Shown: positions 6,525 through 30,789 of the stretch, one piece after another | How the letters are laid out: every line of letters begins with the position of its first letter | Position numbering within the stretch: the stretch's first letter is position 1 | Assembly: GCA_001695645.1 (NCBI GenBank) | Contig: LVZN01000023.1 | Location: 30,001-62,000 of the forward strand | Reading direction: 5' to 3' | DNA: 32,000 bases | Source: Erysipelotrichaceae bacterium MTC7 | GTDB taxonomy: Bacteria; Bacillota_I; Bacilli_A; Erysipelotrichales; Erysipelotrichaceae | Program-made: the position numbers and the translations under genes | Notes under the pieces: model-generated | The model's input: only the letters and a program-made list of their open reading frames with translations | Told to the model about the DNA's origin: nothing | Databases searched by the model: none

Positions 6525-8549
6525 CTATTTCGTTTTAATGATTTTCTTTGCACCAACGTAGGTAACAACAAAGTAACTTGTATAAATTAGCAATAGAATG
6601 CCACAAGCAATGGCACTACCTTCTACAATGGAACTTCTTCCAACACTCATAATAATGGAATCAATAAAGTGAATTCCAACAATACTATGCACAAGAGCTA
6701 ACGCCAGTGGAATAAAGAAATAGATACATAGTTGTTTTAGCAATGCATGATTCATCATCTTATCATCTGCACCAATCTTGCTTAAAATCATATAACGTTT
6801 TTTATTGTCATTTGCTTTTGTCAGTTGTTGCAAGGCAAGTAAAGTTACACTGCTTAACATAAAGACAATTCCCAAATAAATCCCAATGTACGTTGTAATA
6901 ACTGCAGTTCCCTTACTTGCATCCATGACATCTTGACGACTTGTCAAAGAGTAGTAAAACGAACCTTCGTGTGCTGATAGTTGAGAAGATACTTCCTGAT
7001 CCAACTGTGCTTGCATATCCGCTATTTTTGTTTCATCTTTGACATTCATATTGATTGCTTGATGCGCAGTAACGATATCTTTGAATACAATACGATCATC
7101 CACAATAAAAGTGATGGTATTGCTTATAGTGTTTGCAGTCGCTAATACAAGATCAGGCAGTTCATTTTCGCGTAAGCTAAATGTGTAACCTTGCACCTTG
7201 AACGGTTCCTGTTGTTTTACATCTTTCGCGATCGCACGTTGTAGTTGTGCTTGCTTCGCGTAGGGTATGACTTCTTTAGGCTTTACATCCACCGTATCAT
7301 AACCTAAATCACTCAATACCTCATTGAAGTCACTTTCGTGAATGAACGTTACACCAATCCATTCCGGTTGTTCAATGATACCTAAATTATTCTTTTCATA
7401 ATATGCATGAACATGTTGAAACGCTTGTTTATAAGTAGCTACAGGAACTTGAACTTCGACCTGTTTTTGCACATGATACGTACTTGTTTCCTGTTTGATT
7501 GCTTCTGGAATCGTGACATCTACGATGTCCAAGCGATCGTCAGTTTGATATTGTTGATACTCCAAACTTAAATCGTAAGGGGTTTGTTGTTTCAAGGATT
7601 GGTTAATCGTAGCATTTAAACTAAATCCAGTGCTCAATGCACCAATTGACAACAGGAGCAGAATACAAACAAAACTCATCGAGATGAAGTTACTTTTGAT
7701 ACTTGCATTCACTTCCTTTAACACAAACATATTCAAACCTTTGTAGTATAGTTTTTTACTTCTTGAAACAAAACGTAACATAAAGCCAGCTAGACTTAAA
7801 AAGAAGAGTAGTGTACCTACACATCCTAGGATAATGACTTTGGCAAAGTTCTTACCTAAGACTTGGATGGGATCAGTCCATGCTAGGTAGTACGCATATC
7901 CCAAACATACCAAAGCAAGGATGAAAATCACAACATAAACACCAACATACTTGATGCGCATTTCATCGTTTTTGCGATCTGCATAAAGTAGATCAATGAG
8001 TTTAAACTTTGATAAGATAAAAACATTGAGTACCATCGCTAGTAAAAAAACGATGCCAAAGCAAAGTATGGTCAACAGTAGCGCATCAAAAGAGAAGACA
8101 AATTGATAGTTGAGTTGTACTTCGAATAAACTTGCTGTAGCAATGGTTAACACTTGTGATAATGCAATACCAAAAATAACTCCCACAACTAGTGACAACA
8201 AACCAATGATAAACGTCTCATAAAGTAAGATTCTAGCCATCTTGGATTTTTCCATTCCAAGCAGCATGTAGGTCCCAAATTCTTTCTTGCGCCGACGTAC
8301 TAAGAAACTGTTGGCATACATAATCAGAAAACAAAGTACAACGGCCACAAATACTGACATATATCCCATAATTTCTGATAGCAATTGCATGATTTCGGTT
8401 TGTGAAGCACTTAGACTAATCACGGCTTCTTGCTCAGTAAATGAATTAAAGGCAAAAAACAAACAAACGGAGAACGCAAGGGTTAAAAAATAAATAAAGT
8501 AATCTTGAAAACTCTTACGAACGTTCTGTAAAGCAATTTTAAAGTACAT
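6525..8549 (-). CDS. BceB-type ABC transporter permease (FtsX family, about 10 TM, large extracellular loop)
   Basis: About 674 aa, starting MYFKIALQNVRKSF. Hydrophobic blocks flank a roughly 240-aa hydrophilic loop (residues about 320-560). GGAGGT sits 10 nt before ATG 8549. The tracked GTG at 8561 abuts the SD, so it is unlikely. The gene overlaps the ATPase stop codon (translational coupling). Confidence 0.88.
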   Translation of the reverse strand: MYFKIALQNVRKSFQDYFIYFLTLAFSVCLFFAFNSFTEQEAVISLSASQTEIMQLLSEIMGYMSVFVAVVLCFLIMYANSFLVRRRKKEFGTYMLLGMEKSKMARILLYETFIIGLLSLVVGVIFGIALSQVLTIATASLFEVQLNYQFVFSFDALLLTILCFGIVFLLAMVLNVFILSKFKLIDLLYADRKNDEMRIKYVGVYVVIFILALVCLGYAYYLAWTDPIQVLGKNFAKVIILGCVGTLLFFLSLAGFMLRFVSRSKKLYYKGLNMFVLKEVNASIKSNFISMSFVCILLLLSIGALSTGFSLNATINQSLKQQTPYDLSLEYQQYQTDDRLDIVDVTIPEAIKQETSTYHVQKQVEVQVPVATYKQAFQHVHAYYEKNNLGIIEQPEWIGVTFIHESDFNEVLSDLGYDTVDVKPKEVIPYAKQAQLQRAIAKDVKQQEPFKVQGYTFSLRENELPDLVLATANTISNTITFIVDDRIVFKDIVTAHQAINMNVKDETKIADMQAQLDQEVSSQLSAHEGSFYYSLTSRQDVMDASKGTAVITTYIGIYLGIVFMLSSVTLLALQQLTKANDNKKRYMILSKIGADDKMMNHALLKQLCIYFFIPLALALVHSIVGIHFIDSIIMSVGRSSIVEGSAIACGILLLIYTSYFVVTYVGAKKIIKTK

Positions 8550-9306
8550 TGGAGATGTCACCTCCTAATAAGGTAACGACTTCAATGATTTGATCAAAGA
8601 ATTGTTTACGACTTTGTTCTCCTTTGTAAATTTCATTGAAGATTTTTCCATCTTTAATAAATAAAATACGGTCACAATAACTAGCAGTAAACGTGTCGTG
8701 TGTAACTAGTAAAATCGTACTATTGTACGCTTTGTTTAGTTTTTCTAAGGATTCCAGTAACATCCGACTGGCTTTACTATCTAGTGCTCCAGTTGGTTCA
8801 TCTGCCAAAATCAAGCTTGGATTATGCACCAGGGCACGTGCAGCAGCCACACGTTGACGTTGTCCTCCTGACATTTGGTATGGATATTTGGATAAGACTT
8901 CTTCAATATCCAATTTCTTAGCGACATCTTTGACCTTTGCATCAATTTTCTTTGGATTTACTTTTTGAATGGTTAAAGCCAAAGCAATGTTTTCAAAGGC
9001 CGTAAGGGTATCAAGTAAGTTAAAGTCTTGGAAAATGAAGCCCAACTGTTCGCGACGAAACTTACTAAGTTTTTGTTTTTTTAATTCGGTAATGTTGGTA
9101 TCGTCGATGTGGATGTTTCCACTAGTTACCTTATCGATGGTAGATACACAGTTAAGCAGGGTTGTTTTTCCGGAACCACTTGGACCCATAATCCCCACAA
9201 ATTCACCTTCATGAATACCAAAACTAATGCCATCAAGTGCCTTTGTCAGGTTGTCCTTATTTCCATAATATTTCTCAATGTTTTGCACATGTAATACTTC
9301 TTTCAT
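8539..9306 (-). CDS. BceA-type ABC transporter ATP-binding protein
   Basis: Walker A GPSGSGKTT, Q-loop, ABC signature MSGGQRQR, Walker B LILADEPTGALD and the H-loop VTHD are all present. GAGGAGGAAG lies upstream of the ATG. Confidence 0.93.
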   Translation of the reverse strand: MKEVLHVQNIEKYYGNKDNLTKALDGISFGIHEGEFVGIMGPSGSGKTTLLNCVSTIDKVTSGNIHIDDTNITELKKQKLSKFRREQLGFIFQDFNLLDTLTAFENIALALTIQKVNPKKIDAKVKDVAKKLDIEEVLSKYPYQMSGGQRQRVAAARALVHNPSLILADEPTGALDSKASRMLLESLEKLNKAYNSTILLVTHDTFTASYCDRILFIKDGKIFNEIYKGEQSRKQFFDQIIEVVTLLGGDISNVL

Positions 9307-9349
9307 AAACTTCCTCCTCGTATGCCTTTATCCTATCCCATCTACAAAA

Positions 9350-9394
9350 AGTATACACGCTTTCTAACTTACAGTTACCTTACAGTTTTGTAAG
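9350..9394 (-). promoter_or_regulatory. Candidate response-regulator-dependent promoter of the ABC operon: two AACTGTAAG direct repeats at 11-bp spacing plus a TATACT -10
   Basis: On the + strand CTTACAGTT occurs at 9368-9376 and again at 9379-9387, exactly one helical turn apart. The second copy also forms CTTACA-N4-TGTAAG. A -10 TATACT (revcomp of 9350-9355) follows with a poor -35, which suggests activator dependence. Confidence 0.5.
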
Positions 9395-9417
9395 AAAAAA
9401 AGATGCAAGTGCACCTT
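9394..9417 (-). terminator. Rho-independent terminator separating the RR/HK/small-ORF unit from the ABC transporter operon
   Basis: On the minus strand AAGGTGC-ACTT-GCATCTT forms a 7-bp stem with one G-U pair, followed by TTTTTT. It starts immediately after the 70-aa ORF stop at 9418. Confidence 0.55.
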
Positions 9418-9630
9418 CTATAACGGTTCGTGGCGGTCAATATCACCAATCATATGTTTGGTAATGACAACTTTACCATGACTATCTAATAGGGGTGTAA
9501 TGCCTGCACCTTGTTGTGTCTCAATCACTAAATAATTAACACCCGTGACTTGGTCTTCAATCACATAGGATGTCACCTGTTTCTCTTCTTGATGCACACG
9601 GATAAATCGTGGTTCTCTTTTACTATCCAT
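9418..9630 (-). CDS. Small soluble hypothetical protein (70 aa)
   Basis: AGGAGG lies 4 nt upstream of the ATG, and the ORF is coupled to the preceding ORF's stop. The motif TGVNYLV...GAGITPLLDSHGK resembles a small conserved Firmicute family (DUF6440-like from memory, unverified). Confidence 0.7.
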   Translation of the reverse strand: MDSKREPRFIRVHQEEKQVTSYVIEDQVTGVNYLVIETQQGAGITPLLDSHGKVVITKHMIGDIDRHEPL

Positions 9631-9640
9631 TGTTCCTCCT

Positions 9641-9829
9641 CTAGTGAAAAATCATAAAATAAATCACATAGGCCCAACTAAGTAAGCCATGAATGATTGC
9701 CCAGCCTACACTATGCCATGTAGTGTAGCTAATCACCATTGCAAGTGCACTACCAAAGGTTAACCCTTGTTTGATACTGCGATTCACAATCGTTGTTTGG
9801 TTGTCCTTACGTTTTTGATATTCTGCCAT
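9641..9829 (-). CDS. Small two-TM membrane protein (62 aa)
   Basis: AAGGAG lies 6 nt upstream of the ATG. There are two hydrophobic segments: LTFGSALAMVISYTTW and VGWAIIHGLLSWAYVIYFMIF. The start is 15 nt from the HK stop. Confidence 0.7.
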   Translation of the reverse strand: MAEYQKRKDNQTTIVNRSIKQGLTFGSALAMVISYTTWHSVGWAIIHGLLSWAYVIYFMIFH

Positions 9830-9843
9830 ATGTTGCTCCTTTT

Positions 9844-10860
9844 TTATGAGACTAGTTGTTTATAAAAGCGAGTGTTCGGAATACTTAACGTTACCGATGT
9901 GCCCTTACCTAATTGACTATCCACTTGGAGTTGAATGTAAAGTTTATCGCACAAAGCTTTGCACAAATACAAACCCATCCCGGTGGCCTTCTTTTCTAAG
10001 CGCCCATTTTCACCAGTAAACCCACGATTGTAGATGCGTGGTAGATCTTTGGGATCAATACCAATTCCATGATCACGAATACTCACTTCGATATGTTCTT
10101 CATGCTTTTTTGCATAGATTTCAATCTTGCCATAATCATTTGTATATTTTAATGCGTTATCAAGTATTTGATGCAAGATAAACTCCAACCACTTACTATC
10201 CATGGTGATCTTACAATCGCAATCCTGAATCGTTAACTTGATATGCTTTGCGATAAAGCGTTGCTTTAAACGACGCACAGCAGCATTCACACTATCACTA
10301 AGATTCATATCCTTTAAGACATAATCCTGCTGAGGATCACTACTTTTGGCGTAGTATAGCGCTTGTTCAATGTAATCATCCATGCGATCCATTTCGATTG
10401 CCAACTCTTTACTAATAAGACTTGGATGATTGGTATTCATCAGTTTTGCTGCAGTTAATGGACTTTTGATTTCATGAATCCACATCTCCACATATTCCTT
10501 ATAATCTGCTTCCCGCTTTGCATATTGTGCAAGCCGGTCATTGTAATCTTTATTTACAACTTCTAAGGTTTGGTAAAAGATTTGTCCTTCCTCAAAACTT
10601 GGAACTTCTAAGACTTCATGCAACAAACTCTTTTGGTCCAAACGCTCCAATTGCTGTTGCACATTGTGGTAAAAGTTTTGTTTGCGTCGATATTCGATCA
10701 CCAAAAAAGCAAGAATAAACAGCCACAAACTTACCATAAAAAATACGATGGTGTCAACATTTACGCCAGAAGCGATCATAAAGAACACTTGCAATGCGCT
10801 TAACAAAATACCAAACAATAGGACATACAAATGCTCTTTTACATAGGTAGATTTACGCAT
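9844..10860 (-). CDS. BceS-type intramembrane-sensing histidine kinase
   Basis: Two N-terminal TM helices are joined by a loop of only about 7 residues, with no extracellular sensor domain. H-box HEIKSPLTAA, N-box LDNALKYT, G1 DHGIGI and G2 GMGLYL are present. ATG 10860 overlaps the RR stop by 8 nt (ATGCGTAA). The tracked start at 10893 is probably an extension. Confidence 0.9.
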   Translation of the reverse strand: MRKSTYVKEHLYVLLFGILLSALQVFFMIASGVNVDTIVFFMVSLWLFILAFLVIEYRRKQNFYHNVQQQLERLDQKSLLHEVLEVPSFEEGQIFYQTLEVVNKDYNDRLAQYAKREADYKEYVEMWIHEIKSPLTAAKLMNTNHPSLISKELAIEMDRMDDYIEQALYYAKSSDPQQDYVLKDMNLSDSVNAAVRRLKQRFIAKHIKLTIQDCDCKITMDSKWLEFILHQILDNALKYTNDYGKIEIYAKKHEEHIEVSIRDHGIGIDPKDLPRIYNRGFTGENGRLEKKATGMGLYLCKALCDKLYIQLQVDSQLGKGTSVTLSIPNTRFYKQLVS

Positions 10861-11524
10861 GAATGATATACCCCATACCACGTTTGGTTTCAATAAAATC
10901 GGCCAAGTTTAGATATGCCAGTTTTTTACGCAAACGATTCATATTTACCGTAAGTGCATTATCATCCACAAACATATCACTATCCCACATCTCTGACATC
11001 AATTCATCACGTGAAACGATGTTGTTTTTATGTTTGAATAAGGTTGTTAAAATACGTAGTTCATTTTTGGTCAATTCAATACTTTCATCTTGATAAGTCA
11101 GTGTACTTTTCGCCACGTCAAGTAATACATCACGCACATAGAGTTTACTACCTTGATCACCTTCATAACTACGATTCAAAATACGCTCCATGCGTGCCAA
11201 CAAGATTTGCAAATTGTACGGTTTGGTAATAAAGTCATCTGCACCCATGTGCATGCTCATCAATTCATCCAAATCCGTATTGCGACTTGTCACAATAATC
11301 AATGGAACATTGCTTTGCTTGCGCACTTCTTTGGCCACATGATTTCCATCGACCCCAGGCAAATTCAAATCCAACAATACCAAATGTGGATGTAGATTTA
11401 CAACTTGCTTGCTTACCTCATGAAAATCAGTGATGGTGATTACCTCATATCCATTCGTTTTTAAAAAGGTTGAAAGTTCATCACGAATATTCTTTTCATC
11501 CTCAACAATTAAGATCGTATACAT
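10853..11524 (-). CDS. OmpR/PhoB-family (BceR-like) response regulator
   Basis: The receiver domain starts MYTILIVEDE and carries LLDLNLPGVDG and ITKP. The C-terminal winged helix reads LTKNELRILT...LTVNMNRLRKKL. Upstream in-frame ATGs at 11539 and 11572 would add a non-conserved extension. Confidence 0.9.
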   Translation of the reverse strand: MYTILIVEDEKNIRDELSTFLKTNGYEVITITDFHEVSKQVVNLHPHLVLLDLNLPGVDGNHVAKEVRKQSNVPLIIVTSRNTDLDELMSMHMGADDFITKPYNLQILLARMERILNRSYEGDQGSKLYVRDVLLDVAKSTLTYQDESIELTKNELRILTTLFKHKNNIVSRDELMSEMWDSDMFVDDNALTVNMNRLRKKLAYLNLADFIETKRGMGYIIHA

Positions 11525-11635
11525 AAATTTATTATACATGAATTTCACGTATTTTACGATGCTCTTCCTCATACAAAAAAAGGATGTCAGTAATCAACTG
11601 AATCACATGATAACCTTATGGTTATATAGATGTAC

Positions 11636-14296
11636 TTATTCGAATTTACCAAGCACCTTCAATTTGGAGTCAATCATCTTTTGATTGGCATAGGCAAAAC
11701 ATTTTCCACGAGCTTTCAATAAGATTTTACGACCGTTTGCACTTCTTGTATATACAAGGTCACATCGTCCTAACATCCGCTTTACTTGATGCAAGAATAT
11801 TTCTGCATCTTGTTTACGCTTGGCAAATACTTCTGGCACAACAAAGTACTTGTTTAAAGCATTTTTATGACCTTTTCGTACGATGATGTATCGTTGATTT
11901 TCCACCAACGCAAAATACTCTTCCATACAAGTCGAAAATAAATGTTTATCTTTGGCGCTTCCACCTTCCAAGTACGCCATCATCGTGCTCGCTGCTTGTA
12001 CGTTCTTTACCCGTACATACTTACTTTCATGACTCACTAGATTCAGTTCCTCAAGCGCTGCTAGCATTGCTTGTCCCACTTTCTTGACGGTATGTTGTGG
12101 AGTCACGTAGGCAAATAGACGTGACAACCCCCAATCTAAAAGAAAGATAAGAACGATAGCTACAAGAAGTATGCCAATCGCGGTAAATGGGGTGACTGGC
12201 ATGGTTTGATAAAACAGTCTTTGGGCGGCCTGAATTGCAATCGTTGTGATGACCATACACATGACAAACATCCAGTAATTGGTAAACACATAGTTCTTTT
12301 TCAATAGTTCTACATCAAGTTCAACCACATCTTCGATTGGGACTTGTTGGTTCACACAAACAAGCGCTTCATTCCATCGTTCATGCAACTCCTTGCGTTT
12401 TCTAGCTGCTTCTAGCATTTGTTTGTTGATCTTTGCAACTGTTTTTTCATCAAGTGTATCACCTACATCTTGAATATAACTTAGTCTTGCAAAACCACTT
12501 TCGATCACCGGCTTTGTATAATGGACACCCAAAAATGTCTTGAACCGTCGTTTCAGTGTCTGTAGATCAATGGAATGAAAAGGATCATAGAGAATGTCTT
12601 GTTTGTTCATTTTTGGTTCGATGCAAACCAAATGCCAAATATTACTCACTTTATTTGGATCACTCATGGATTTTCGAATGGCACGACCGCGCATCTGATT
12701 GCTTAATACAAACGAACCTACAAAGGATGCCAAAATCAAAGAATTGATACTAGGGGAATCCCAACCTTCACCAAGCAAGGCTTTTGTGCCTATCAATGCT
12801 TGAATTTGTCCGTTTTCAAAAGCTAAGGTTACTTGTTTTACAAGTGTGCCACTTTCCGCATTACTTTCTAGTAAGACATAGTCATCCACTGGTAACTTTA
12901 CAGTCTGTGAGGTGTATCCCAGTTCACGTAAACGTTCGCAAATAGAACTTGCAACAGCAACCGGTAAAATGATGACTGTTCCACTGAGTACAGCAAGCTT
13001 CATTTGTACAGATTGACTGCGAAGCGTTTCAAAAATGGTGATAGTCCCGACACTTTGACTCATCTTACCTGTACCAAGTAAATCTAACGCCTCTTTCTTG
13101 ATAAAGTCACAAAGAATCAACATGCGCAAATTTTCTTTCATGTTGTCATATTCAGCCAATGCAATCGTTTTGATGCTTTCTAGTTTTCCTTTGCTATTGA
13201 TTAACAGTTTATCGATGCGTTCATTGGTAATCATTTTGACTTGCTTACGCTGGATACATCCATATTTTTTTAGAATTTGACGCAAAACTTCAATTTCGTT
13301 GTTTTTATTAACAAAACGATCTGTATCATCATACAAGATACCTTGCATCAAAATTTCTAAATGTTTCACTGACAATGTCGGTAAGTTTCCTTTTTTGACA
13401 GACAATACTTGGTTGAGTTGGCTTGGATAAACGATTTGTTTTTCCTGCATGTACATCATTAATGCATACAAATAGGCTGGTTGTTCAAGCAGTCGATCCA
13501 AACATTCATTTGGATTTTTTAACACTTGATGGCTCGAAACAAGATCGTACAGCTGTTTAGAATCCATTAACTCTTGCTGACAAAGTAAAACTTGTTCCTT
13601 GTATTCTTTGATGGCTAATTTTTCCTCTTTGGTTGGCCAGTTGAAGTACACGTAATCTTGGTGCGGACATAGACTTTCTTCCTTGACCAATTCAGGTGTA
13701 AAGATTTCTTCATCAATTGGTCCACACAAATCAATGTATCGCTTCCATTCATTTGGGTTTGCATCATATGGTGGAGTTGCGGTAAGCGAGATTAAGCGAA
13801 TACCTTCCAGTTGTCCAAGAATTTGTTCAAGCACTTTCACCCATTCATTACGCATATGGTGTGCCTCATCTAAACAAATCACCTTTACATGTTGCGCTTT
13901 CAAATAGGCGACCACATCAATCGAATCAAGTGCATCATCACTTGCCTGTTTGGTATACATGCTATGCAAAGCTTGATAGGTAATTGCGGTGATTGGCTTA
14001 TAGTCGAGTAGACTGTTGGATAGATAGGTTTTTGCTTGAACTGTTTTACACAAAAAAGCATCCTGTATGCGAGCTAACCACTGTTCGCGTATCGTGATGC
14101 TAGGTGTTAATATGAGACAGTTTGCGCCCAATTGTCGAATCATTTCAATGCCTACAGTTGTTTTACCTGACCCCGGTGCAGCAACAATATGTATTTTTTC
14201 ATCAGCTTTGTGTTGGTCAAAGTTATCCAACACACGTTTTTGATACAATCTCCACGTACCCCTAAATTTCAAGACATTATCAAATTGATTCATCAT
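11636..14296 (-). CDS. SF2 DEAH-box helicase with predicted two-helix membrane hairpin and uncharacterised C-terminal domain
   Basis: 886 aa. Walker A AAPGSGKT (14159-14182), LDEAHH (13856-13873), SLTATP and motif VI QMRGRAIR are present. Hydrophobic segments lie at residues about 670-692 and 702-723 (nt about 12128-12289). GAGGG sits 5 nt before the ATG. Confidence 0.9.
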   Translation of the reverse strand: MMNQFDNVLKFRGTWRLYQKRVLDNFDQHKADEKIHIVAAPGSGKTTVGIEMIRQLGANCLILTPSITIREQWLARIQDAFLCKTVQAKTYLSNSLLDYKPITAITYQALHSMYTKQASDDALDSIDVVAYLKAQHVKVICLDEAHHMRNEWVKVLEQILGQLEGIRLISLTATPPYDANPNEWKRYIDLCGPIDEEIFTPELVKEESLCPHQDYVYFNWPTKEEKLAIKEYKEQVLLCQQELMDSKQLYDLVSSHQVLKNPNECLDRLLEQPAYLYALMMYMQEKQIVYPSQLNQVLSVKKGNLPTLSVKHLEILMQGILYDDTDRFVNKNNEIEVLRQILKKYGCIQRKQVKMITNERIDKLLINSKGKLESIKTIALAEYDNMKENLRMLILCDFIKKEALDLLGTGKMSQSVGTITIFETLRSQSVQMKLAVLSGTVIILPVAVASSICERLRELGYTSQTVKLPVDDYVLLESNAESGTLVKQVTLAFENGQIQALIGTKALLGEGWDSPSINSLILASFVGSFVLSNQMRGRAIRKSMSDPNKVSNIWHLVCIEPKMNKQDILYDPFHSIDLQTLKRRFKTFLGVHYTKPVIESGFARLSYIQDVGDTLDEKTVAKINKQMLEAARKRKELHERWNEALVCVNQQVPIEDVVELDVELLKKNYVFTNYWMFVMCMVITTIAIQAAQRLFYQTMPVTPFTAIGILLVAIVLIFLLDWGLSRLFAYVTPQHTVKKVGQAMLAALEELNLVSHESKYVRVKNVQAASTMMAYLEGGSAKDKHLFSTCMEEYFALVENQRYIIVRKGHKNALNKYFVVPEVFAKRKQDAEIFLHQVKRMLGRCDLVYTRSANGRKILLKARGKCFAYANQKMIDSKLKVLGKFE

Positions 14297-14392
14297 ATTT
14301 TCCCTCTAATATAGGTAATATAGCACAAATCATCTACCACGTACATAACTCACTCACTATGATATGACGAGCATCTATATTTGCTTTCGTGT

Positions 14393-14448
14393 ATAAAAAA
14401 GATAGATGTTGATTATGTTACATGTAAAATAACTATCAAATCTATCTT
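14393..14448 (-). terminator. Terminator-like inverted repeat downstream of LRR adhesin gene 2
   Basis: AAGATAGAT (14399-14407) pairs with ATCTATCTT (14440-14448). The 32-nt loop contains the palindrome TTACATGTAA. A T-run follows on the minus strand. Confidence 0.4.
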
Positions 14449-14479
14449 CTATTTATCTAAAGTTTATCCTATGCGCTAC

Positions 14480-16258
14480 CTATTGTTTATGAAAGTTTCT
14501 TTTTCTCCACAAGATAAGGAAACCTACTAAAACTGATCCGCCAAATAACATAAGCAATCCCATCACATTTACTAAATCTCCAGTTGGAATCACCGTACTT
14601 GTGTTAGCTACTTCTCCGTTAAACACTGGTTTTACTTCAACTGCTTTTTCATCATTTGAAGAGTTTGTTTCTGGAAGGCTGATTGTATCTGAAATGGTAT
14701 CATCACTTGGTTTGCTTGCATCAGTTGGTTCATTGATGTCACTTGGTTGATCAACCTCTACAGCTTTCTCTTTAATTGTCCAAGTTAAATCTTTCGCATC
14801 AGATGTCCCATCTGACCACATGTAATTGTCAACATCCTTCAATTGAACTTTTCCTGTGTAAATTCCTGCATCACTCTTAAGCACATCTCCTACTAACTGC
14901 ATCGTTGAATCATCATGACCATCAAGAACTTCTGAAATGTGATGTTCTGTTCCATCGTGTTCAAGTTCACCATTAACTGTAGGGATGTTAATTACTTTTT
15001 TATTCACGTTAATATCCAACGTTGTTGTTTTCCCTTTATAGGTAATTGTTACTGCTTCATCCGATGCTTTAAGATTGTCCGATAAGTCAAAAGTAAAATC
15101 GCTTTGATTTTCGTTGTATGCGATGTCGTTTAGCATCTCAAATCCATCTTCTGCAACAGTGTATACTGTAATAACTAAATCTGTTGGATCATATGAATCA
15201 CCAAATTCATAATTAACTTTAGAGGGTGTATTCACAGTGATTGATTTGACTTCATAAGGAATCGCTCTCCAGTCAGTCGGAGTTTTCAAGAATGTTTCTG
15301 TGTTTGTTGCATTTTTAGGATAATAAACATTTACATTCGTCATATTAAATACATTTGCTCCCCATCTAGAAAGATCTGTTTCGATCAAGATGACATCATT
15401 CATGCTTGTGCACAATAAAAAAGCATAATCTCCGATCGTCGTTACCGTTCTATTATTTTCCAAACCTGTACTTAGTAATTTATAGCACTGTTGAAATGCA
15501 CTTTCTCCGACTGTTGTAACTGTCTTGTTTTTTTCTAAGCCTGTACTTACCAAACTAGTACAACCTGCAAATGCAGCATCACCAATTGCTGTTACTGTAT
15601 TGTTACTTTCCAACCCTGTACTTGTTAAGCCATCACAACCATCAAATGCATAATCTCCAATTGTTGTTACCATGTCGTTGCTTTCCAATCCCGTACTTGT
15701 TAAGCTATTACAAAATCGAAATGCATAATCTCCAATTGTTGTTACCTTGTCGTTACTTTCCAATCCCGTACTTGTTAAACTGGCACAAAGTGCATATGCA
15801 AGATTTCCAACCGTAGTCACTGTTGTGTTACTTTCCAACCCTGTACTTGTTAAGCTTTGACAGTAATTAAATGCATATTTACCAATTGATACTATATCAT
15901 AAGTATTGCCTTCGTATGTTACAGTATTAGGGATATATAAATCCCCACTTGCTGATCTAGCAATAGCAGCATCATTTCCAATCCCAGCCCCTATCTCCAC
16001 AGTTCCATTTTGACCGTCTTTAGGTTCTGTTAAAATTCTAAATGATGTTGCAACATAATTCCCTGCAACCTTAACCCCATCAACACCATCTTCAGTTTTA
16101 AAATACTCCCCACTTTGTAATGCTGCACGTGGCGTCACTTCGACTTCACTGTCCTTTACTTGCAAGCTTTCTGTTGCTGCTGGATCAGTAAATCCAGTTG
16201 TTGTAAGCATGATCACGATCATAAGACATATCATACTGTATTGTTTTATTTTCTTCAT
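14480..16258 (-). CDS. Cell-wall-anchored BspA-type leucine-rich-repeat surface protein (paralog 2)
   Basis: GGAGG lies 5 nt before ATG 16258 (MKKIKQYS...). The protein has a signal peptide and six 25-aa LRR units (SLTSTGLESNDKVTTIGDYAFRFC). It shares the Ig-like module NYEFGDSYDPTDLVIT with paralog 1. The C-terminus reads VIPTGD, then a hydrophobic helix, then WRKRNFHKQ. Confidence 0.85.
   Translation of the reverse strand: MKKIKQYSMICLMIVIMLTTTGFTDPAATESLQVKDSEVEVTPRAALQSGEYFKTEDGVDGVKVAGNYVATSFRILTEPKDGQNGTVEIGAGIGNDAAIARSASGDLYIPNTVTYEGNTYDIVSIGKYAFNYCQSLTSTGLESNTTVTTVGNLAYALCASLTSTGLESNDKVTTIGDYAFRFCNSLTSTGLESNDMVTTIGDYAFDGCDGLTSTGLESNNTVTAIGDAAFAGCTSLVSTGLEKNKTVTTVGESAFQQCYKLLSTGLENNRTVTTIGDYAFLLCTSMNDVILIETDLSRWGANVFNMTNVNVYYPKNATNTETFLKTPTDWRAIPYEVKSITVNTPSKVNYEFGDSYDPTDLVITVYTVAEDGFEMLNDIAYNENQSDFTFDLSDNLKASDEAVTITYKGKTTTLDINVNKKVINIPTVNGELEHDGTEHHISEVLDGHDDSTMQLVGDVLKSDAGIYTGKVQLKDVDNYMWSDGTSDAKDLTWTIKEKAVEVDQPSDINEPTDASKPSDDTISDTISLPETNSSNDEKAVEVKPVFNGEVANTSTVIPTGDLVNVMGLLMLFGGSVLVGFLILWRKRNFHKQ
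15371..15943 (-). repeat. In-frame tandem 75-bp LRR coding repeats, about 6-7 units
   Basis: CTTTCCAATCCCGTACTTGTTAA recurs at 15681 and 15756, exactly 75 bp apart. Degenerate copies lie on both sides. Confidence 0.8.
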
Positions 16259-16381
16259 ATTTTCCTCCATTTTTCTTCATTTATTTTATATTTCTATGCC
16301 GTTCCTTTTTGTACCCTTCACCTCCATAGCCACTTGGTTTATAAATAAGTATTCGTTTCTCCAAAAAGGTTGGGTACTTTT

Positions 16382-17719
16382 TTATAATTTAAATAAAAAT
16401 ATATTCACATTCTCTTTACTGTCGCATAACACAACCAAAATCTCACCTTCAAAAATCCCTTCAAGATCATGACCTGATGGTAATTTCAAATGCTTGTCTT
16501 GGTATACAATATACGAATTATTGTAATCAATACCATTTTTCGTCTGTTGAATACGCAGAGAAATACCATGATTATTTTTACGTATTGAAGTAACAATTGG
16601 AATATCGTTATCAATGTTTTGGATATGGACAATTCTTTTTTCTTGACCAACCTGTACTTTATACATGCCATTATCATGAGCATAAAAAGTATAGTAGTCT
16701 TTAATGCGTGTATGCCACAACTGTTTTTGGTTACATTGCACACCTATATCTGCACTTGTGTTTGTATCAAATGGATATATTCGTACTTCAAGTGGTCCAG
16801 CAATGGGTTGTGGAACATAGCGAACTTCTTTAATTGTTTTCGTAACATTTGAAACTTTATCCTTTACAGTCGTTCTACTATCGTGAAAATCTTTGGTTGT
16901 AATTTGTTCATACTCCTGAAAAGAACTAAAGTTAACACTTTGGTTCACTGCACCTGTAAGCTGAAAATTTGGAAGGATGACCATACTTGAAAAAACACAT
17001 GAGATGACAAGACTCATTGTTTCCATTCTAGACAAAGCCTGATGCACTACCTTGCCATATGACCTCTTCTTCACATTACGCATCTTCACTTTACATGCAC
17101 GTTGGTTATCTTTTTGCATGATATCAAATATGTAGAACCCACCATTGTAGCTATAATACTCATCTGGCGTGTATCCTTGTTTTTTCAAATCTGTAATCAG
17201 TTTTTGTCGTACTTCGTAAATTCTACTTTTGACCAAACTTGGTTTGATTTCCAATTTCTCAGCAATTTCTTTCTGGGAAAGTCCTGCTAGAAAACGAAGT
17301 TGGGCTGTTTCTTTGTAAGTTGGACTTAACTTTTGAAACGAAGCGAGAATCGCATTCATAATCGTTGTATTATCAAAGTCAAGCTGCGGATTTTCTGGTG
17401 AAACGACAAGTTGCTCTAAATCACATTCATCGCTTATTTGCACAGTTTGTTTCTTTCGCTTTAGTTTTGTCTTACATATATTTCCTGCAATACCAAAAAT
17501 CCAATAGTGAAACGCTTCTTGATTTCGTAGTTGATAGATTTTTTCAGTTATGACACACATGACATCCTGAACAACTTCTTCTGCATCGTGAGTATTACGT
17601 AAAATCGATAGTGCATAGCAATATAATGGTCCTTGGTAAAATTCAAAGATTTCAACGAGTGCATGTTTATCACCATTTTGTAGTCTATTGACAACGCTAT
17701 CTTCTATCCGCTTATTCAT
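16382..17719 (-). CDS. Sigma-70 family (ECF-like) sigma factor fused to a TM helix and a roughly 190-aa extracytoplasmic domain (paralog 1)
   Basis: Region 2 reads DAEEVVQDVM...FHYWIFGIAGN. The region 4 HTH reads LSQKEIAEKLEIKPSLVKSRIYEVRQKL. A basic stretch KVKMRNVKKRSYGK precedes the TM helix TMSLVISCVFSSMVILPNF (nt about 16964-17023), followed by a beta-rich C-terminal domain. Confidence 0.85.
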   Translation of the reverse strand: MNKRIEDSVVNRLQNGDKHALVEIFEFYQGPLYCYALSILRNTHDAEEVVQDVMCVITEKIYQLRNQEAFHYWIFGIAGNICKTKLKRKKQTVQISDECDLEQLVVSPENPQLDFDNTTIMNAILASFQKLSPTYKETAQLRFLAGLSQKEIAEKLEIKPSLVKSRIYEVRQKLITDLKKQGYTPDEYYSYNGGFYIFDIMQKDNQRACKVKMRNVKKRSYGKVVHQALSRMETMSLVISCVFSSMVILPNFQLTGAVNQSVNFSSFQEYEQITTKDFHDSRTTVKDKVSNVTKTIKEVRYVPQPIAGPLEVRIYPFDTNTSADIGVQCNQKQLWHTRIKDYYTFYAHDNGMYKVQVGQEKRIVHIQNIDNDIPIVTSIRKNNHGISLRIQQTKNGIDYNNSYIVYQDKHLKLPSGHDLEGIFEGEILVVLCDSKENVNIFLFKL

Positions 17720-18051
17720 TATCCACTCCCTTTCGATTGCATTTCTTTTTCATATAGATTCACCAACACGATCAATTGCGACTATTTAGACACTACAAGA
17801 AACGATGTCAGAAATGTTGCCAACCCATTTTATAAAAATAATTGATTAATTGCAATATTTTAATAAATAATTTAATGATTATTCATAACATAATCGATAA
17901 GTAAAGCGAAGTCGTTGATCAACAACCCATTACTCGGTGTCTAGATCTAGCAAGTGTTCGTGTTGTCTTTTAGCTTATTGAAGAAAAAAAGCAGAGAGTA
18001 TGATCAGTAAGTTGGGGTTTACTGATATACCCTGAACAATTTGAAATAAAG

Positions 18052-18107
18052 AAAAGATAGATAATGAATAATCTACGTTTATTAGTAGATGACAAAATCT
18101 ATCTTTT
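18052..18107. terminator. Compound inverted repeat (terminator-like) in the long non-coding gap
   Basis: AAAAGATAGAT (18052-18062) pairs with ATCTATCTTTT (18097-18107). An inner ATCTAC/GTAGAT stem lies inside. T-runs are present on both strands. The arms match those of the 14399-14448 repeat. Confidence 0.4.
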
Positions 18108-18212
18108 TTGTATTTTTTCATTGTAAGGACAAATTAAAATGTTACTCCTTCATAAACACATGATAGTACATGTTATGACACTATCGATGGAATCATAAAA
18201 CAATTCCTAACG

Positions 18213-18247
18213 CTAAAAAGGCTGCTCCTTAGGACCAACCTTTTTAG
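18213..18247 (-). terminator. Candidate terminator downstream of the GH89 gene
   Basis: CTAAAAAGG (18213-18221) pairs with CCTTTTTAG (18239-18247), a 9-bp stem with a 17-nt loop. It lies about 150 nt past the stop. Confidence 0.45.
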
Positions 18248-18397
18248 ACATATGAATGAAGGGCATACGTATCCAAATTTCATTGCATGCACACTGTCTC
18301 GACGATTTTATATATGAAATCTACACATGCTTTGAATTTATATTTACGAATCTCAATCTTCACTTTATCAAAACTATTTTCATAGTTTCAACCAAAT

Positions 18398-21300
18398 TTA
18401 TTTTGCTTTTGTAAAGCGTTTACGTCCTAGCGCATACATCAATACAAGTGCAAAGCCTAAGACGACTACATCTCTTGCAACATTTGTTGCATCACCCGTA
18501 TTCGTTCCTGAACCAGTACTACTTTGATCACCTTGACCCTCTGGCGAGATGTTTGGTAATGAAACTCCTGGTTTTACTTCCAAGTTACGAATTGCGTTTT
18601 CTAAGTTTGCAAATGCATCTTGTAGTTGTGATACGCTTGCTTGCTCATCTGCAAACACTGCAAGTGCTTGTTGGTAAGCAAGTTCAAATGCAGTATATGA
18701 TGCTAATGTATAGTCACTTCCATCAAGATATGCTTTTGCTTGTTCAAGCAGGTTTGCTAGTGCATCTTTGCTTGGTGCATAATCTGCATCAACAAGTGCA
18801 TCAATAGCTTGTTGCAATGCTGCATTTGCATCATCTAATTCCACTTGATTTATGCTCACTTGGATAGCGATGTCTTGTGCTTTCTTCAAAGCAGCAAGCA
18901 ATTGCTTCCACGAGTTCTCTGTATAGTCTTCACCATGCAGTTTACGTACGTTTGCAATCGTATCAAGCAAGCTTTGACGATTCAACAAGACAAGTTGATC
19001 TACTTTGTCTTGCACATCTTTGCACATTTGATCAAGGTCTTCTTGATTGACACTGATTTGGTTGTAAAGTGCGTTAGCAATTTGACTAAGTTCGACCAAC
19101 TGTGCATAGGAATCTTTACTATACAAAGATTCATCAAGTGCTGCTACTTGGTCCAACAAGGCTAACAATTGACTACGGTCAAGTGTTACGAGTTGCTCCA
19201 TCGCCGCAAGTAAAGCATCTGTTGCTGCTTCAATTTCAAGCATTGACGTGCTTGTTTCATTTATTTTAAGCGCTTGTTGTAAAGCACTCGTGATAGCTTT
19301 CCATGAGTCTTTTGTGTAATCTTTTTCTTGTAATGTACTTGCTTGCGCAATGGCTTCTACCAGTGCATCTTTGTTGTAGGTAACCATACCATCCTTAAAT
19401 GTAGTAATGGCTGTTTCTAGTGCACTTGTAATCGCATCAATTTCACTCGTTGGTTTACTTTGATGGTATCCACTAGTCGCTACTTGAATTGCCTTTTCTA
19501 AAGCATCCATTGTTGCTTGACTGACTTGTCCAACTTGGTTTCCCACAGAGGTTTCTTCAACTAAGCTTTGTGCAATGGCAAGTGTTGCATGATAGCGTCC
19601 AATGCTATCGAGTTTGGCAATGGCTACCTCTTTTGCTTGTTGCAAAGTCAAGGCCGCCTCATCCAATTGTTGCTGACTTACTTTGGTTGTATCGTAAACG
19701 ACTTTCGCTTTGTCGTATGCAGATGTTAGGGTTGCATCATCTGCCAATTCATCAATAGCAAGTAAAGCTTTTACTTCACATAGTTCCACCAACAATCCGG
19801 TACGATCAATGGTAATGTAAGTTTTAAGGAAGGCTGCATATGCATCTTTCAATGCTTGGATGTGTGCATTTGCTTCAGCTGAATTTAAAGCATTCGTTAA
19901 GGCTTGTTTTGCAACATCCACCTTTTGATCAAGTGCATCTTTTGCAGCTTGTGGATAATTCCCTGCATATTCACCAATGGTTACTTTTGCAAGTGCATCG
20001 TTTAACGTATGGATGTACGCTTCTAATGCTGCATTTGCTTCCTTGTGATACAAGTTAAAATCATGAAGTTCACATGCATTTAACAAAGTTAAACGAATGC
20101 GACTTGTTAATACTGGATCAAATTGTGTGACATGTTTTTTGCTGATGCTTAAGTTGTTCGATTCATCATCTAGCATTTCCCAAGTATCAACTTTTGCATC
20201 ATTTGCGTATTCCACTTTGTATTGTAGTGCTGATGTTGCATCTTTATACAACTCATACGCGTAAATATCAACTGGTTTTTCAAATGCAAAGATAAGCTCT
20301 GTTTCTCCTTGTTGATTGAAGTTTACAAATGTGTCATAGTTTCCATCCACTAGTTTTGCTTTTTCATCTGCGCTCAAATCAACATTTGAAGTGATGGTCG
20401 CAGTTTCTGACATACTTTCTGGTTTTGTGTAGGCCTCAATTTCTGAAAGTGCAGGCGACGCCAAATAGAAGTTTCCACCTTGTGCACGGCCTTCGATTAC
20501 GACGTGAATCTTTGAACCAACGATGTTTGCTGGAATTGTATACATCGCATCTAAATCGGCTACATTATCTAATTTATCAAGAATGGTTGTACGTTTCCCT
20601 GAAGCATCTTCGATATCGACTTTAAACTGAAAGCGAATTCCTGCCTTTTCAAAATACACGCGTACTTCACTGATTTCTTGATCTGCTTGTAAATCTGTAG
20701 TAAACGTTGTTGGGAAAATATCCGTTTGAATGTTTTCCAAATCGCTTAGATCCCCATTTGTTAATTTGTCTGTGTTATATTGTTTCTTTTCGTTGCTAAC
20801 AAGTCCTGGTTTGCCAGCTGCTATGTTTTCACTTTTGAATGATACTTCTTGTTCTTTTAGTATTTTAACTTCTGCAAGTGCTGCCCATGCGCCAGGAATC
20901 GATCCACCAGTTGCACGACCAATAAATTCAATGGATACCTTTTTCACATTTGCATTTACACTAATCTTATACATGCGTTCAAGATCAACCGCGTTATTTG
21001 ACATATCTAACACGGTGGTTTTTACGCCTTTTGCATCTTCTACAACCACTTTGTACTTGAATGGTAAGTCTTTCTTTTCAAAGTATAGTTCGATAAGATC
21101 CACATGTTCTTCTTTGCTTAAATCGATGTAGAAGTTTGTTGGAAAATGACCTCCATCATTTACCCAAATACTTCCCAAATCACCATCGATGGCATTACTT
21201 GGCGCTCTTCCGCCTTGTGAATTACGATCTGAACTTGCAGTTGCACTTAGCGCTAAGTTTTCGTATACAGCTTTCTTTTCCGCTTTTCCATATACGATAA

Positions 21301-23104: not shown

Positions 23105-23134
23105 ATCCGGACGTGCAAACCCACACCAGTCACC

Positions 23135-24454
23135 TTATGCAATCACTGCAGCATCCGCAAATTTTGTTTTAAAGTTACTAGGAACCATGCCAGAGAATCC
23201 ACTTAACACTGGAGTTATACCATAGGTTTGCATGCGGTCATGCATTTGTCTTCCTAGTTCCACGCGGCTTTCAAACCAATTATCGGGTAATGGTCCTCCA
23301 TACCCAGTCATATTTTGCATATAGTACCAAGCAAAGTATCCTGGCCCAGAAATGTATTCTTTAATTTCTGTGTCACTGTAACCATATGCTTGTAAGGTAC
23401 GACGAACGACTTCTTCTTGACCCACAATATCAAGTACGGTATTGATTCCAGACATGGCTGCCCAGTCTAGAAATGCTTCATATTCATTCCAGTCCCAAAA
23501 AGCCATCGTATACGAATAAGTACAGAAGTTTAATGCATAACGATAATCATACTCTGTTTCCTTCACAATTTTTTTGTCGAGTGCTGGTAAGCTTTCTGGC
23601 ATTTGCAGTTGTGAAGCAAAGATTGGGTTGTAATCAACCTTACAGTAATTGCGTAAGTAGTAATTGAATCCTGAAGCCATCGCCACCCCATTGTTTCCAC
23701 GAATGATAATGGTTCCTTCCGCCCCGTTTTCTAGTTCAAAAATATCTTTTCCCTCTAAGTCATCGCGCATTTCAAACGTGAACTTACCAGTCCATGCTTC
23801 CCCAATAACGCGTCCAACTAAGTTTGACATTTCTTGTAAAGTCTTCGAGTTTGCATACGCTTGATCGTTTGCAAATTTGTCATACGCATCTTTCCATTTG
23901 GTATCTGCAAAGTTATCAACCTCAATTTTATTTTGGTCAACTTGTTTATCACCAATGCGTTCCCCGTATACTTCAACCTCGGCAAGATTTCCCTCCATCA
24001 TACCTGAGGTATAACTTAAATTAATTCGGATAACACTCGCTTCTACACCTGCTAGCGCATGGCTATCCCCTGCTGTTGTTGCTTTTGTCTCATCATCTTT
24101 GTACGCAACTTTCTCAAATGATGATCCGGTTTTGGATGCATAGATTTGATAGTTATAGTATGGTCCTACATTGTTGAAAATTTTAATCTCACTAAGGTTG
24201 TATAAACCATCCAATTGTAAATCAATGCTCCGGTAATGATCTTCTTGGGAGTTTGAAGATGGTGTTTGATAAAATGTATTTTTATTACCATCCACTGCCA
24301 AAGATGCATCATGTCCACTTGAGCTTTTTGCTGTTGCCGTAATATTTTCTATTTTACTTTGCGCTGCTTTTAAAGAAACTTCTGGATAAGTTACTACGCT
24401 TAACGCCATAAGTGTTGAAAATGCTACACACAATAATGTCCTCAATTTATGCAT
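23135..24454 (-). CDS. GH89 alpha-N-acetylglucosaminidase, upstream fragment: signal peptide, CBM32, NAGLU N-domain and start of the TIM barrel
   Basis: AAGGAGG lies upstream of the ATG. The signal peptide reads MHKLRTLLCVAFSTLMALSVV. The F5/8 type C module includes AVDGNKNTFYQ. The NAGLU N-terminal and catalytic motifs end at ...GFSGMVPSNFKTKFADAAVIA, then TAA. Confidence 0.85.
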   Translation of the reverse strand: MHKLRTLLCVAFSTLMALSVVTYPEVSLKAAQSKIENITATAKSSSGHDASLAVDGNKNTFYQTPSSNSQEDHYRSIDLQLDGLYNLSEIKIFNNVGPYYNYQIYASKTGSSFEKVAYKDDETKATTAGDSHALAGVEASVIRINLSYTSGMMEGNLAEVEVYGERIGDKQVDQNKIEVDNFADTKWKDAYDKFANDQAYANSKTLQEMSNLVGRVIGEAWTGKFTFEMRDDLEGKDIFELENGAEGTIIIRGNNGVAMASGFNYYLRNYCKVDYNPIFASQLQMPESLPALDKKIVKETEYDYRYALNFCTYSYTMAFWDWNEYEAFLDWAAMSGINTVLDIVGQEEVVRRTLQAYGYSDTEIKEYISGPGYFAWYYMQNMTGYGGPLPDNWFESRVELGRQMHDRMQTYGITPVLSGFSGMVPSNFKTKFADAAVIA

Positions 24455-30683: not shown

Positions 30684-30789
30684 GTCACACATTCCTTTTT
30701 TTCTAATTCTAACCTGAATTCATCACACTTTAAATTGCTCTTTGTACTTCGTTGGTTTGCTATGTAGCAAGCAACTACTAAGAGTGGAT

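Follow-up and report, generated by a model that had tools for sequence, protein, structure and literature searches.

The window, that is, the whole stretch of DNA analysed in the present study, comprises 32,000 nucleotides of contig LVZN01000023.1 of Erysipelotrichaceae bacterium MTC7. Its reverse strand contains a complete gene, with a GC content of 0.387 versus 0.372 for the window, which encodes a protein of 886 amino acids (aa). In this protein, a superfamily 2 (SF2) helicase core is followed by a predicted transmembrane (TM) hairpin and by a basic C-terminal domain (CTD). The original prediction, made from the sequence letters alone, had described this open reading frame (ORF) together with its helicase motifs and two hydrophobic segments, and each of these elements was found where it had been placed. 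The gene and the parts of its product, including those delineated with AlphaFold2 (AF2), are as follows:

11636–14296 (−): complete coding sequence of 886 codons plus stop, SF2 helicase with TM hairpin and CTD (ORF translation, homologs)
13637–14269 (−): RecA-like lobe 1, residues ~10–220 (Pfam ResIII match, 5.9e-19, over residues 14–176; XPB/Rad25 as the best PDB profile match)
13127–13633 (−): all-helical insertion between the RecA lobes, residues ~222–390, ~170 aa (AF2 secondary structure)
12662–13126 (−): RecA-like lobe 2, residues ~391–545 (weak Pfam Helicase_C match over residues 489–542)
12314–12661 (−): post-core segment, residues 546–661, with an NIWHL strand, an RRF..FLGV helix and charged helices up to the hairpin (AF2)
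12107–12313 (−): predicted TM helical hairpin, helices 662–697 and 703–730, hydrophobic cores 670–691 and 702–723 (hydropathy, AF2)
11639–12106 (−): basic α/β CTD, residues 731–886, family-specific (AF2 model of the CTD alone; conserved signature)

Lobe 1 carries the Walker A motif AAPGSGKT (14159–14182, residues 39–46), the DEAH motif LDEAHH (13856–13873, residues 142–147) and motif III SLTATP (13772–13789, residues 170–175), and lobe 2 carries motif VI QMRGRAIR (12674–12697, residues 534–541). Residues K45, D143, E144, H146, T172 and T174 of the first lobe and Q534, R536, G537, R538 and R541 of the second are invariant in 63 homologs. The match to Pfam ResIII (PF04851) has a score of 69 bits (E = 5.9e-19) and exceeds the gathering cut-off of 22.5. 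In the full-length AF2 model, built with the 63-sequence alignment (predicted local distance difference test, pLDDT, 81; predicted template modelling score, pTM, 0.73), the motifs lie on two RecA-like lobes. Walker A, DExH, motif III and the motif VI arginines are thus all present on the fold typical of SF2 enzymes, which bears out the complete SF2 core of the original prediction. The insertion between the lobes was also correctly anticipated and is helical, but its size is about 170 aa rather than the claimed 200 aa or so.

The search of the full-length model against PDB using Foldseek listed LGP2/MDA5/RIG-I, XPB-Bax1, Hef, FANCM and the Dicer helicase as the best matches (E-values from 1e-13 to 1e-9), all of them SF2 enzymes. 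A family profile compared with PDB sequences had archaeal XPB/Rad25 as its sole match (E = 6e-10), and XPB/Rad25 was also the only PDB match by sequence. Judging by its conserved motifs, the motor is intact, ATP-driven and of the nucleic-acid type. It falls within the XPB/ResIII-like portion of SF2, and in layout it is similar to duplex translocases.

The segment following the core includes the stretches NIWHLV (residues 552–557) and LKRRFKTFLGV (residues 581–591), in which N552, W554, H555, L556, R583, R584, F585, F588, L589 and G590 are invariant among the same 63 homologs. A weak similarity connects this segment with the corresponding region of type I HsdR. Another conserved block was noticed after motif III (residues 191–215, nt ~13652–13726), where C191, G192, D195, E197, C210, H212, D214 and Y215 are invariant in the 63 homologs; the Cys...Cys-x-His pattern was also seen in one inspected Rhodovulum homolog. 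To go by this residue pattern, the block may represent a metal site, a structural site or a counterpart of the XPB RED motif.

Predicted membrane hairpin and C-terminal domain

The two hydrophobic segments (nt 12224–12289 and 12128–12193) constitute the most hydrophobic stretch of the protein, and a single strand of the RecA core is the only comparable stretch elsewhere. The maxima of the Kyte–Doolittle (KD) hydropathy, averaged over 19 residues, are 1.78 for TM1 and 2.72 for TM2. In 55 of the 63 homologs, both segments have a mean above 1.6 over 19 residues, and the position, length and hydrophobicity of the hairpin are conserved while its sequence drifts freely. The helices are joined by a loop of 10.6 residues on average. 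Behind TM2, the next 15 residues contain 3.8 Lys and Arg versus 0.4 Asp and Glu on average, whereas the flank before TM1 is acidic, and the positive-inside rule is satisfied on the C-terminal side only. In all other sequence criteria (two helices of about 20 residues, conserved hydropathy, short loop) the region looks like a hairpin membrane protein. Taken together with the two-helix hairpin modelled by AF2, this supports the membrane hairpin proposed originally, which probably fixes the protein to the cell membrane from the inside. The charge distribution fits an N-in/C-in topology, in which both the motor and the CTD would be cytoplasmic.

The hairpin is not universal. In most members of the family, motif VI and the NPRY motif of the CTD are about 245–275 residues apart, and the sequence between them includes one or two hydrophobic segments. 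Rhodobacterales have about 196 residues between the two motifs and no such segment. A hairpin-sized stretch is therefore absent from this clade and the CTD motifs are retained, so the helicase and the CTD can be considered the functional core. In these hairpin-less Rhodobacterales, an ORF of 120–146 aa has a 4-nt overlap with the start of the helicase gene at its start codon (L094, 5546–5983; L090, 7618–7983; L098, 6564–7004). Its product is helical, is not hydrophobic and has no Pfam match. The arrangement of the reading frames suggests translational coupling with the helicase, and the product may be a clade-specific partner replacing membrane anchoring.

It could also be supposed that the hydrophobic helices form a buried coiled coil or an oligomerisation stalk of a soluble protein. 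The polar residues in TM1, the acidic N-terminal flank, the modest AF2 confidence in the hairpin and the existence of a whole clade functioning without the segment agree with this supposition. Nevertheless, the hydropathy values of about 2.7 and 1.8, the hydrophobicity and length kept in spite of sequence drift, the short loop and the strongly basic C-terminal flank argue for membrane helices, and a soluble stalk is most improbable.

The last 155 aa contain 28 Lys and Arg versus 14 Asp and Glu. In the full-length model, they form an α/β domain (residues 733–881), and the CTD modelled separately reached a pLDDT of 87.7 and a pTM of 0.81. No match to the CTD was found in Pfam or in PDB sequences, and Foldseek found no match of its fold in PDB or BFVD (best E-values of 0.16–0.55, best TM-score on the query 0.37). 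The comparison of models proposed along with the original prediction thus gave a confident domain with no counterpart of its fold in these two databases, and the description of a basic domain devoid of recognised motifs holds.

An alignment of 136 bacterial and archaeal sequences revealed a CTD signature consisting of N800-Q/P-R802-Y803, V820-P821, Y849-T850-R851, G855-R856, L859 and A862-R863; A831, F834, G843 and L847 are also conserved. The signature residues are mostly Arg, Tyr and Thr. There is no Cys at the conserved signature positions, and no conserved acidic or His residue was found among the 136 sequences. A nuclease of the PD-(D/E)xK or GIY-YIG type, considered because of the motif pattern, was rejected, as neither a fold match nor conserved acidic or His residues were found. 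Because of the lack of such residues, the CTD is interpreted as having a binding or regulatory role rather than that of a nuclease.

Distribution of the family and genomic neighbourhood

Full-length homologs share 40–98% identity with the window protein, and many of those at 40–68% come from Clostridia and Erysipelotrichia; among the named homologs, that of Breznakia blatticola is the closest (68%). An exhaustive search with the post-core residues 546–886 yielded 908 representatives after clustering at 50% identity. This region is always located at the C-terminus of proteins of about 870–930 aa, and the shorter hits look like contig fragments. When genomes were scanned, relatives turned up in at least 540 species, among them oral streptococci. 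Plasmid and protein searches added members from Paenibacillus, Sporosarcina, Chondrinema (Bacteroidota), Sphingomonas, Rhodobacterales, Lentimonas and Thorarchaeota. The family therefore ranges over Clostridia, Erysipelotrichia, oral streptococci, Bacillales, Bacteroidota, Alphaproteobacteria, Verrucomicrobiota and Thorarchaeota. In databases, its members bear generic names such as "DEAD/DEAH box helicase family protein". The full-text literature search found nothing on the family, including in papers on streptococcal defence. No name or locus tag of a pneumococcal ortholog was found, and the large streptococcal cluster is S. peroris/infantis-like. The position of the locus is stable across many Streptococcus species.

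In three loci (L028, L047 and L048, ~10001–12650), the helicase is split into two ORFs of 336 and 536, 502 and 377, and 389 and 494 aa, respectively; these copies may be pseudogenes or assembly errors. In one family member of 1107 aa (P0185), a NUDIX domain is fused to the N-terminus of the helicase, and in Paenibacillus (L089, 12740–13516) a NUDIX gene is located two genes downstream of the helicase and is followed by NAD-biosynthesis genes. Additional fused domains were considered as a clue to function and abandoned, the NUDIX fusion being a single case.

The following features adjoin the helicase gene in the window:

14301–14325 (−): expression signals, by consensus match only: extended −10 element TGCTATATT (14317–14325) and Shine–Dalgarno (SD) sequence GAGGGA (14301–14306), 4 nt before the ATG
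14400–14447 (−): AT-rich hairpin followed by a T-run (RNA folding, −13.6 kcal/mol, z = −2.0)
9844–11572 (−): OmpR-type response regulator (10853–11572) and histidine kinase (9844–10893) (Pfam)

Both the SD sequence and the candidate extended −10 element noted originally are present, and streptococcal orthologs have their own extended −10 element TGnTAAAAT upstream. Control by competence or SOS was rejected, since the upstream regions of 85 loci contained neither a ComX cin-box nor a LexA Cheo box. The claim of terminator-like hairpins on both sides stands for one side. The upstream hairpin at 14400–14447 is plausible and is likely, to go by the folding calculation, to terminate the upstream leucine-rich repeat (LRR) gene and insulate the helicase transcript on the 5′ side. 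The hairpin in the 64-nt gap downstream is weak (z = −0.9). A consensus scan for GC-stem terminators, which did not pick up the AT-rich hairpin at 14400–14447, found none on the minus strand on either side of the gene. Since the downstream hairpin is weak, the helicase transcript may run through into the response-regulator gene. The regulator and kinase genes are possibly co-transcribed with the helicase, which as a matter of gene arrangement does not show a shared function.

According to Pfam, the neighbours in the window include a Bce-like module (response regulator, histidine kinase, DUF6440 protein, ATP-binding cassette (ABC) ATPase and FtsX), BspA-type LRR proteins, an extracytoplasmic function (ECF) sigma factor fusion and a NAGLU glycosidase. 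The peptide-antibiotic resistance module and the BspA-type proteins agree with the original description of the neighbourhood, but the 1568-aa "adhesin" turned out to be a NAGLU-family glycosidase. No mobile-element or defence genes were found in the rest of the window.

Between the kinase and the ABC ATPase (9418–9829, reverse strand), there are genes for the DUF6440 protein (70 aa) and for a 62-aa product that includes a hydrophobic stretch and is matched by no Pfam family. The glycosidase is apparently encoded by two ORFs (18398–24454, reverse strand): ORF 23135–24454 includes F5/8C and NAGLU_N together with the initial third of the TIM barrel, and ORF 18398–23104 includes the remaining barrel, NAGLU_C, F5/8C and FIVAR. 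A frameshift, a stop codon or an error in sequencing could account for the split at ~23104–23135. The window also encodes two ECF-type sigma factors that are paralogs of each other (16382–17719 and 29364–30692, both on the reverse strand). Each of them is extended at the C-terminus by about 260 aa for which Pfam has no match, and each is located upstream of surface-protein genes, which encode a BspA-type LRR protein and a SpaA-fold pilin-like protein.

A census of 34 dereplicated lineages covered 134 immediate neighbours (±1 and ±2 genes). Response_reg (8), HATPase_c (7), HisKA (6), MatE (5) and Trk (4) head the list of Pfam families. No neighbour is conserved across the 34 lineages, and neighbours differ even between Breznakia species and across Lachnospiraceae. 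Nuclease families are absent from the 25 commonest Pfam families of the 134 neighbours and from the window. The census thus upholds the view of a stand-alone gene that has no nuclease or methylase partner. Conserved housekeeping synteny, which would have spoken against an unusual role, was not observed either: the neighbours are mostly metabolic, yet they depend on the lineage.

Response-regulator and histidine-kinase genes are more frequent next to the helicase (13 of 134 positions at ±1/±2) than farther away (9 of 350 positions at ±3 to ±8), with an odds ratio of 4.1 and p = 0.002 in a modest sample, the control being drawn from the same loci. The order helicase, OmpR-type response regulator, histidine kinase and resistance transporter on one strand was found in three lineages far apart, represented by the window, Faecalicatena and Sphingomonas (window, 6525–11572, reverse strand; L003/L004, 10771–15743; L095, 9708–16625). 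The transporter is of the Bce-type ABC/FtsX kind in two cases and a resistance–nodulation–division efflux system in Sphingomonas. The gap between helicase and regulator is 20 nt in Faecalicatena, compared with 64 nt in the window. Nearby, there are also anecdotal recurrences of genes for the membrane and envelope (VTT/DedA, undecaprenyl-diphosphatase, EamA, MatE, sortase).

These observations have led to the supposition that the protein is an accessory of envelope-stress or detoxification circuits, acting with two-component systems and resistance transporters. However, the association concerns only about 8 of the 34 lineages, with varying orientation and type of two-component system. Such genes are abundant in these genomes, and no mechanism joins a nucleic-acid motor to circuits of this kind. 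A role as an accessory seems very doubtful. The enrichment is real but modest and does not define an operon; an obligate operon with the Bce-like module was rejected because of the small share of lineages, and the association was kept as a weak statistical one.

The original prediction had also suggested a single-gene anti-phage or anti-plasmid surveillance protein. In this case, the tethered motor would meet incoming DNA at the point of entry and would block it or signal through the CTD. The stand-alone ResIII-type helicase and its layout of helicase, insertion, linker and CTD, recalling RIG-I-like receptors, are compatible with such a function, as is the splitting of the gene in three loci. 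The scan against PADLOC-DB v2.0.0, however, gave no significant match: the best E-values (4e-4 to 5e-2) are at the level of noise and concern the generic helicase lobe. No effector domain was detectable in the protein using Pfam, PDB sequences and Foldseek against PDB and BFVD.

The neighbourhoods were checked with PADLOC at ±2 genes and with 11 query families, taken from streptococcal islands, at ±10 kb. Any single PADLOC model was matched by only one or two of the 134 immediate neighbours. The tested defence genes (restriction–modification, Abi, KAP) were found within ~10 kb in 23 of 25 mitis/oralis/infantis loci, and in none of the 53 non-streptococcal loci and none of the 10 loci of the S. 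parasanguinis group. In mitis-group streptococci, the left flank is constant and consists of phosphotransferase system EIIBCA, ROK kinase and VTT/DedA genes, followed by the helicase. Directly downstream of it (L042–L082, ~12650–21000 in locus coordinates) there is a hypervariable defence island with type I restriction–modification operons carrying varying inserts (AbiH, RhuM, ThsA-Macro), KAP-family NTPases and DUF6261. The island also holds a 1461-aa type ISP-like enzyme (ResIII+Eco57I). The streptococcal helicase is thus a fixed border, which adjoins the hotspot as a conserved flank instead of being part of its variable content. As the island was seen only in the mitis group, where the helicase is this flank, the assignment as a defence-island gene in general was rejected; the enrichment in defence islands expected for a defence gene was not found outside that group.

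Members of the family were found in 2 of 50,697 phage records, both short unannotated contigs, in five plasmid records, all of them large and non-mobilizable, and in 3 of 2.9 M IMG/VR contigs. Mobile-element cargo was rejected on account of this near absence. Together with the architecture, which is fixed and well conserved across phyla, and with the PADLOC and neighbourhood results, the near absence leaves the surveillance function unsupported in general and unlikely, although the position beside the mitis-group island lends it a low probability.

Proposed function of the protein

The evidence agrees best with the second suggestion of the original prediction, a factor that processes nucleic acids in association with the membrane. 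The present analysis establishes that the catalytic motifs are intact, and it also establishes the fold, the conservation of the hydrophobic hairpin and of the CTD, the phyletic breadth and the lack of a conserved partner; the insertion into the membrane and its topology, the nucleic-acid substrate and the cellular role are inferred. The protein is most likely a membrane-localised SF2 remodeller of DNA or nucleoprotein that works alone, as an accessory or housekeeping factor of the cell and not as a dedicated defence system. We give this explanation about an even chance of being correct, and it is meant jointly with the view that the architecture is fixed across a large family inherited mostly vertically.

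The two RecA lobes and the helical insertion would make up an ATP-driven motor tracking along duplex nucleic acid, most likely DNA. The hairpin, located between the C-terminal helices of the helicase and the last domain, would anchor the protein in the cytoplasmic membrane, and the motor and the CTD would both stay in the cytoplasm. The Arg- and Tyr-rich CTD would bind a substrate, a partner or a regulator without acting as a nuclease. The protein would thus act alone at the membrane on DNA, nucleoprotein or RNA–DNA substrates.

Several points weigh against this explanation. The best fold matches include dsRNA translocases, so that DNA as a substrate is a preference and not a result, and the TM-scores of the full-length Foldseek matches are low (0.17–0.33 on the query). 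A purely cellular role leaves unexplained the position beside the streptococcal defence island, the three split copies and the enrichment of two-component systems. TM1 of the window protein is only moderately hydrophobic (KD 1.78), and the AF2 confidence in the hairpin is modest (pLDDT 55–77). Finally, the loss of the hairpin in Rhodobacterales means that membrane anchoring, although widespread, is dispensable for the core activity of the helicase and the CTD.

The first of these points leads to an alternative in which the protein is an RNA helicase, acting on dsRNA or RNA–DNA hybrids in membrane-associated RNA metabolism (R-loops, mRNAs of co-transcriptionally inserted membrane proteins, decay). 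LGP2, MDA5, RIG-I and the Dicer helicase head the Foldseek matches; the prevalence of Arg, Tyr and Thr in the CTD signature and the NUDIX genes fused to the helicase or located near it in Paenibacillus are also consistent with RNA. Meanwhile, the similarity of sequences and profiles favours the DNA enzymes XPB/Rad25, ResIII and HsdR, the NUDIX link comes down to one fusion, and no RNase or degradosome gene recurs among the neighbours in the 34 lineages. An RNA helicase is judged rather improbable, and remodelling of DNA or nucleoprotein is preferred.

The kind of enzyme, an SF2 helicase, is already known, but its architecture is unusual and the family is uncharacterised. This architecture is not a curiosity of one genome, as it is fixed across gut and oral Firmicutes, with hundreds of species, and occurs beyond them. 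The function, once found, would apply to a large family and to a new fold, and could reveal how DNA or RNA is handled at the membrane. Genetically tractable carriers include S. oralis, S. mitis, Sporosarcina and Sphingomonas, and the hairpin-less clade provides a natural comparison for the role of membrane anchoring.

Comparison with known systems

Although few enzymes have been studied as well as SF2 helicases, an SF2 motor with an integral membrane hairpin is seen in none of the families compared here. The NCBIfam search gave only sub-threshold matches to XPB, Rad25, HsdR and PriA.

The membrane-anchored DNA translocases FtsK/SpoIIIE and the type IV coupling proteins VirD4/TraD are functional analogs, being NTP-driven nucleic-acid motors held by a few TM helices. 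They are hexameric ATPases of the FtsK-HerA type with N-terminal TM segments, in contrast to the SF2 core and C-proximal hairpin of the window protein, which has no Pfam match to FtsK_SpoIIIE or T4SS-DNA_transf.

The motors of type I and III restriction systems, HsdR and Res, share the ResIII domain, and lobe 2 and the following segment of the window protein are weakly similar to HsdR. The HSDR_N nuclease domain is absent from the window protein, and its score against PRK11448 is 20.7 versus a cut-off of 729. No HsdM/HsdS or Mod partner was found in the window or in the 53 non-streptococcal loci.

RIG-I-like receptors and the Hef, FANCM and Dicer helicases resemble the window protein in layout, in which Hel1, a helical insertion, Hel2 and connecting helices precede a C-terminal recognition domain, and they translocate along duplexes with no processive unwinding. 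The helical insertion of the window protein lies at the place equivalent to Hel2i of RIG-I-like receptors and may correspond to it, and these receptors are the top Foldseek matches of the whole protein. However, the identity to this group of helicases is only 11–16%, the TM-scores are low, and none of its members has a membrane anchor. The Zn-binding domain by which RIG-I-like receptors recognise RNA ends is not matched by the fold of the window CTD, which has no Cys at its conserved signature positions. The resemblance is architectural only, and homology beyond the SF2 core is not claimed. One might nevertheless imagine the family as a prokaryotic membrane-tethered counterpart of RIG-I-like sensors. 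The motor would scan duplexes at the inner face of the membrane, such as incoming DNA or DNA that the co-transcriptional insertion of membrane proteins keeps there; the CTD would be a new fold recognising nucleic-acid ends or a partner, and the output would feed the adjacent two-component circuits of envelope stress in some lineages. The probability of this idea is low. If true, it would mean a new, widely conserved surveillance or remodelling of nucleic acids at the membrane, common to bacteria and Asgard archaea.

The family of XPB/Rad25/Ssl2 (COG1061), which includes archaeal XPB-Bax1 and XPB of TFIIH, consists of duplex-DNA translocases and shares with the window protein a DExH-type SF2 core of the ResIII kind. 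The window protein is not XPB proper, because it misses the cut-offs of the XPB family by an order of magnitude (50.5 versus 610 for NF045503 and 20.1 versus 328.7 for TIGR00603) and the N-terminal lobe alone aligns. In archaeal and bacterial operons, XPB is accompanied by a Bax1-type nuclease, whereas the window helicase has no such partner beside it or among its 25 commonest neighbour families. XPB also lacks the membrane hairpin and an equivalent of the CTD, and the insertion between the lobes is much larger in the window protein. With these differences, XPB/Rad25 is the closest relative of the window protein by sequence and profile and is among its best fold matches.

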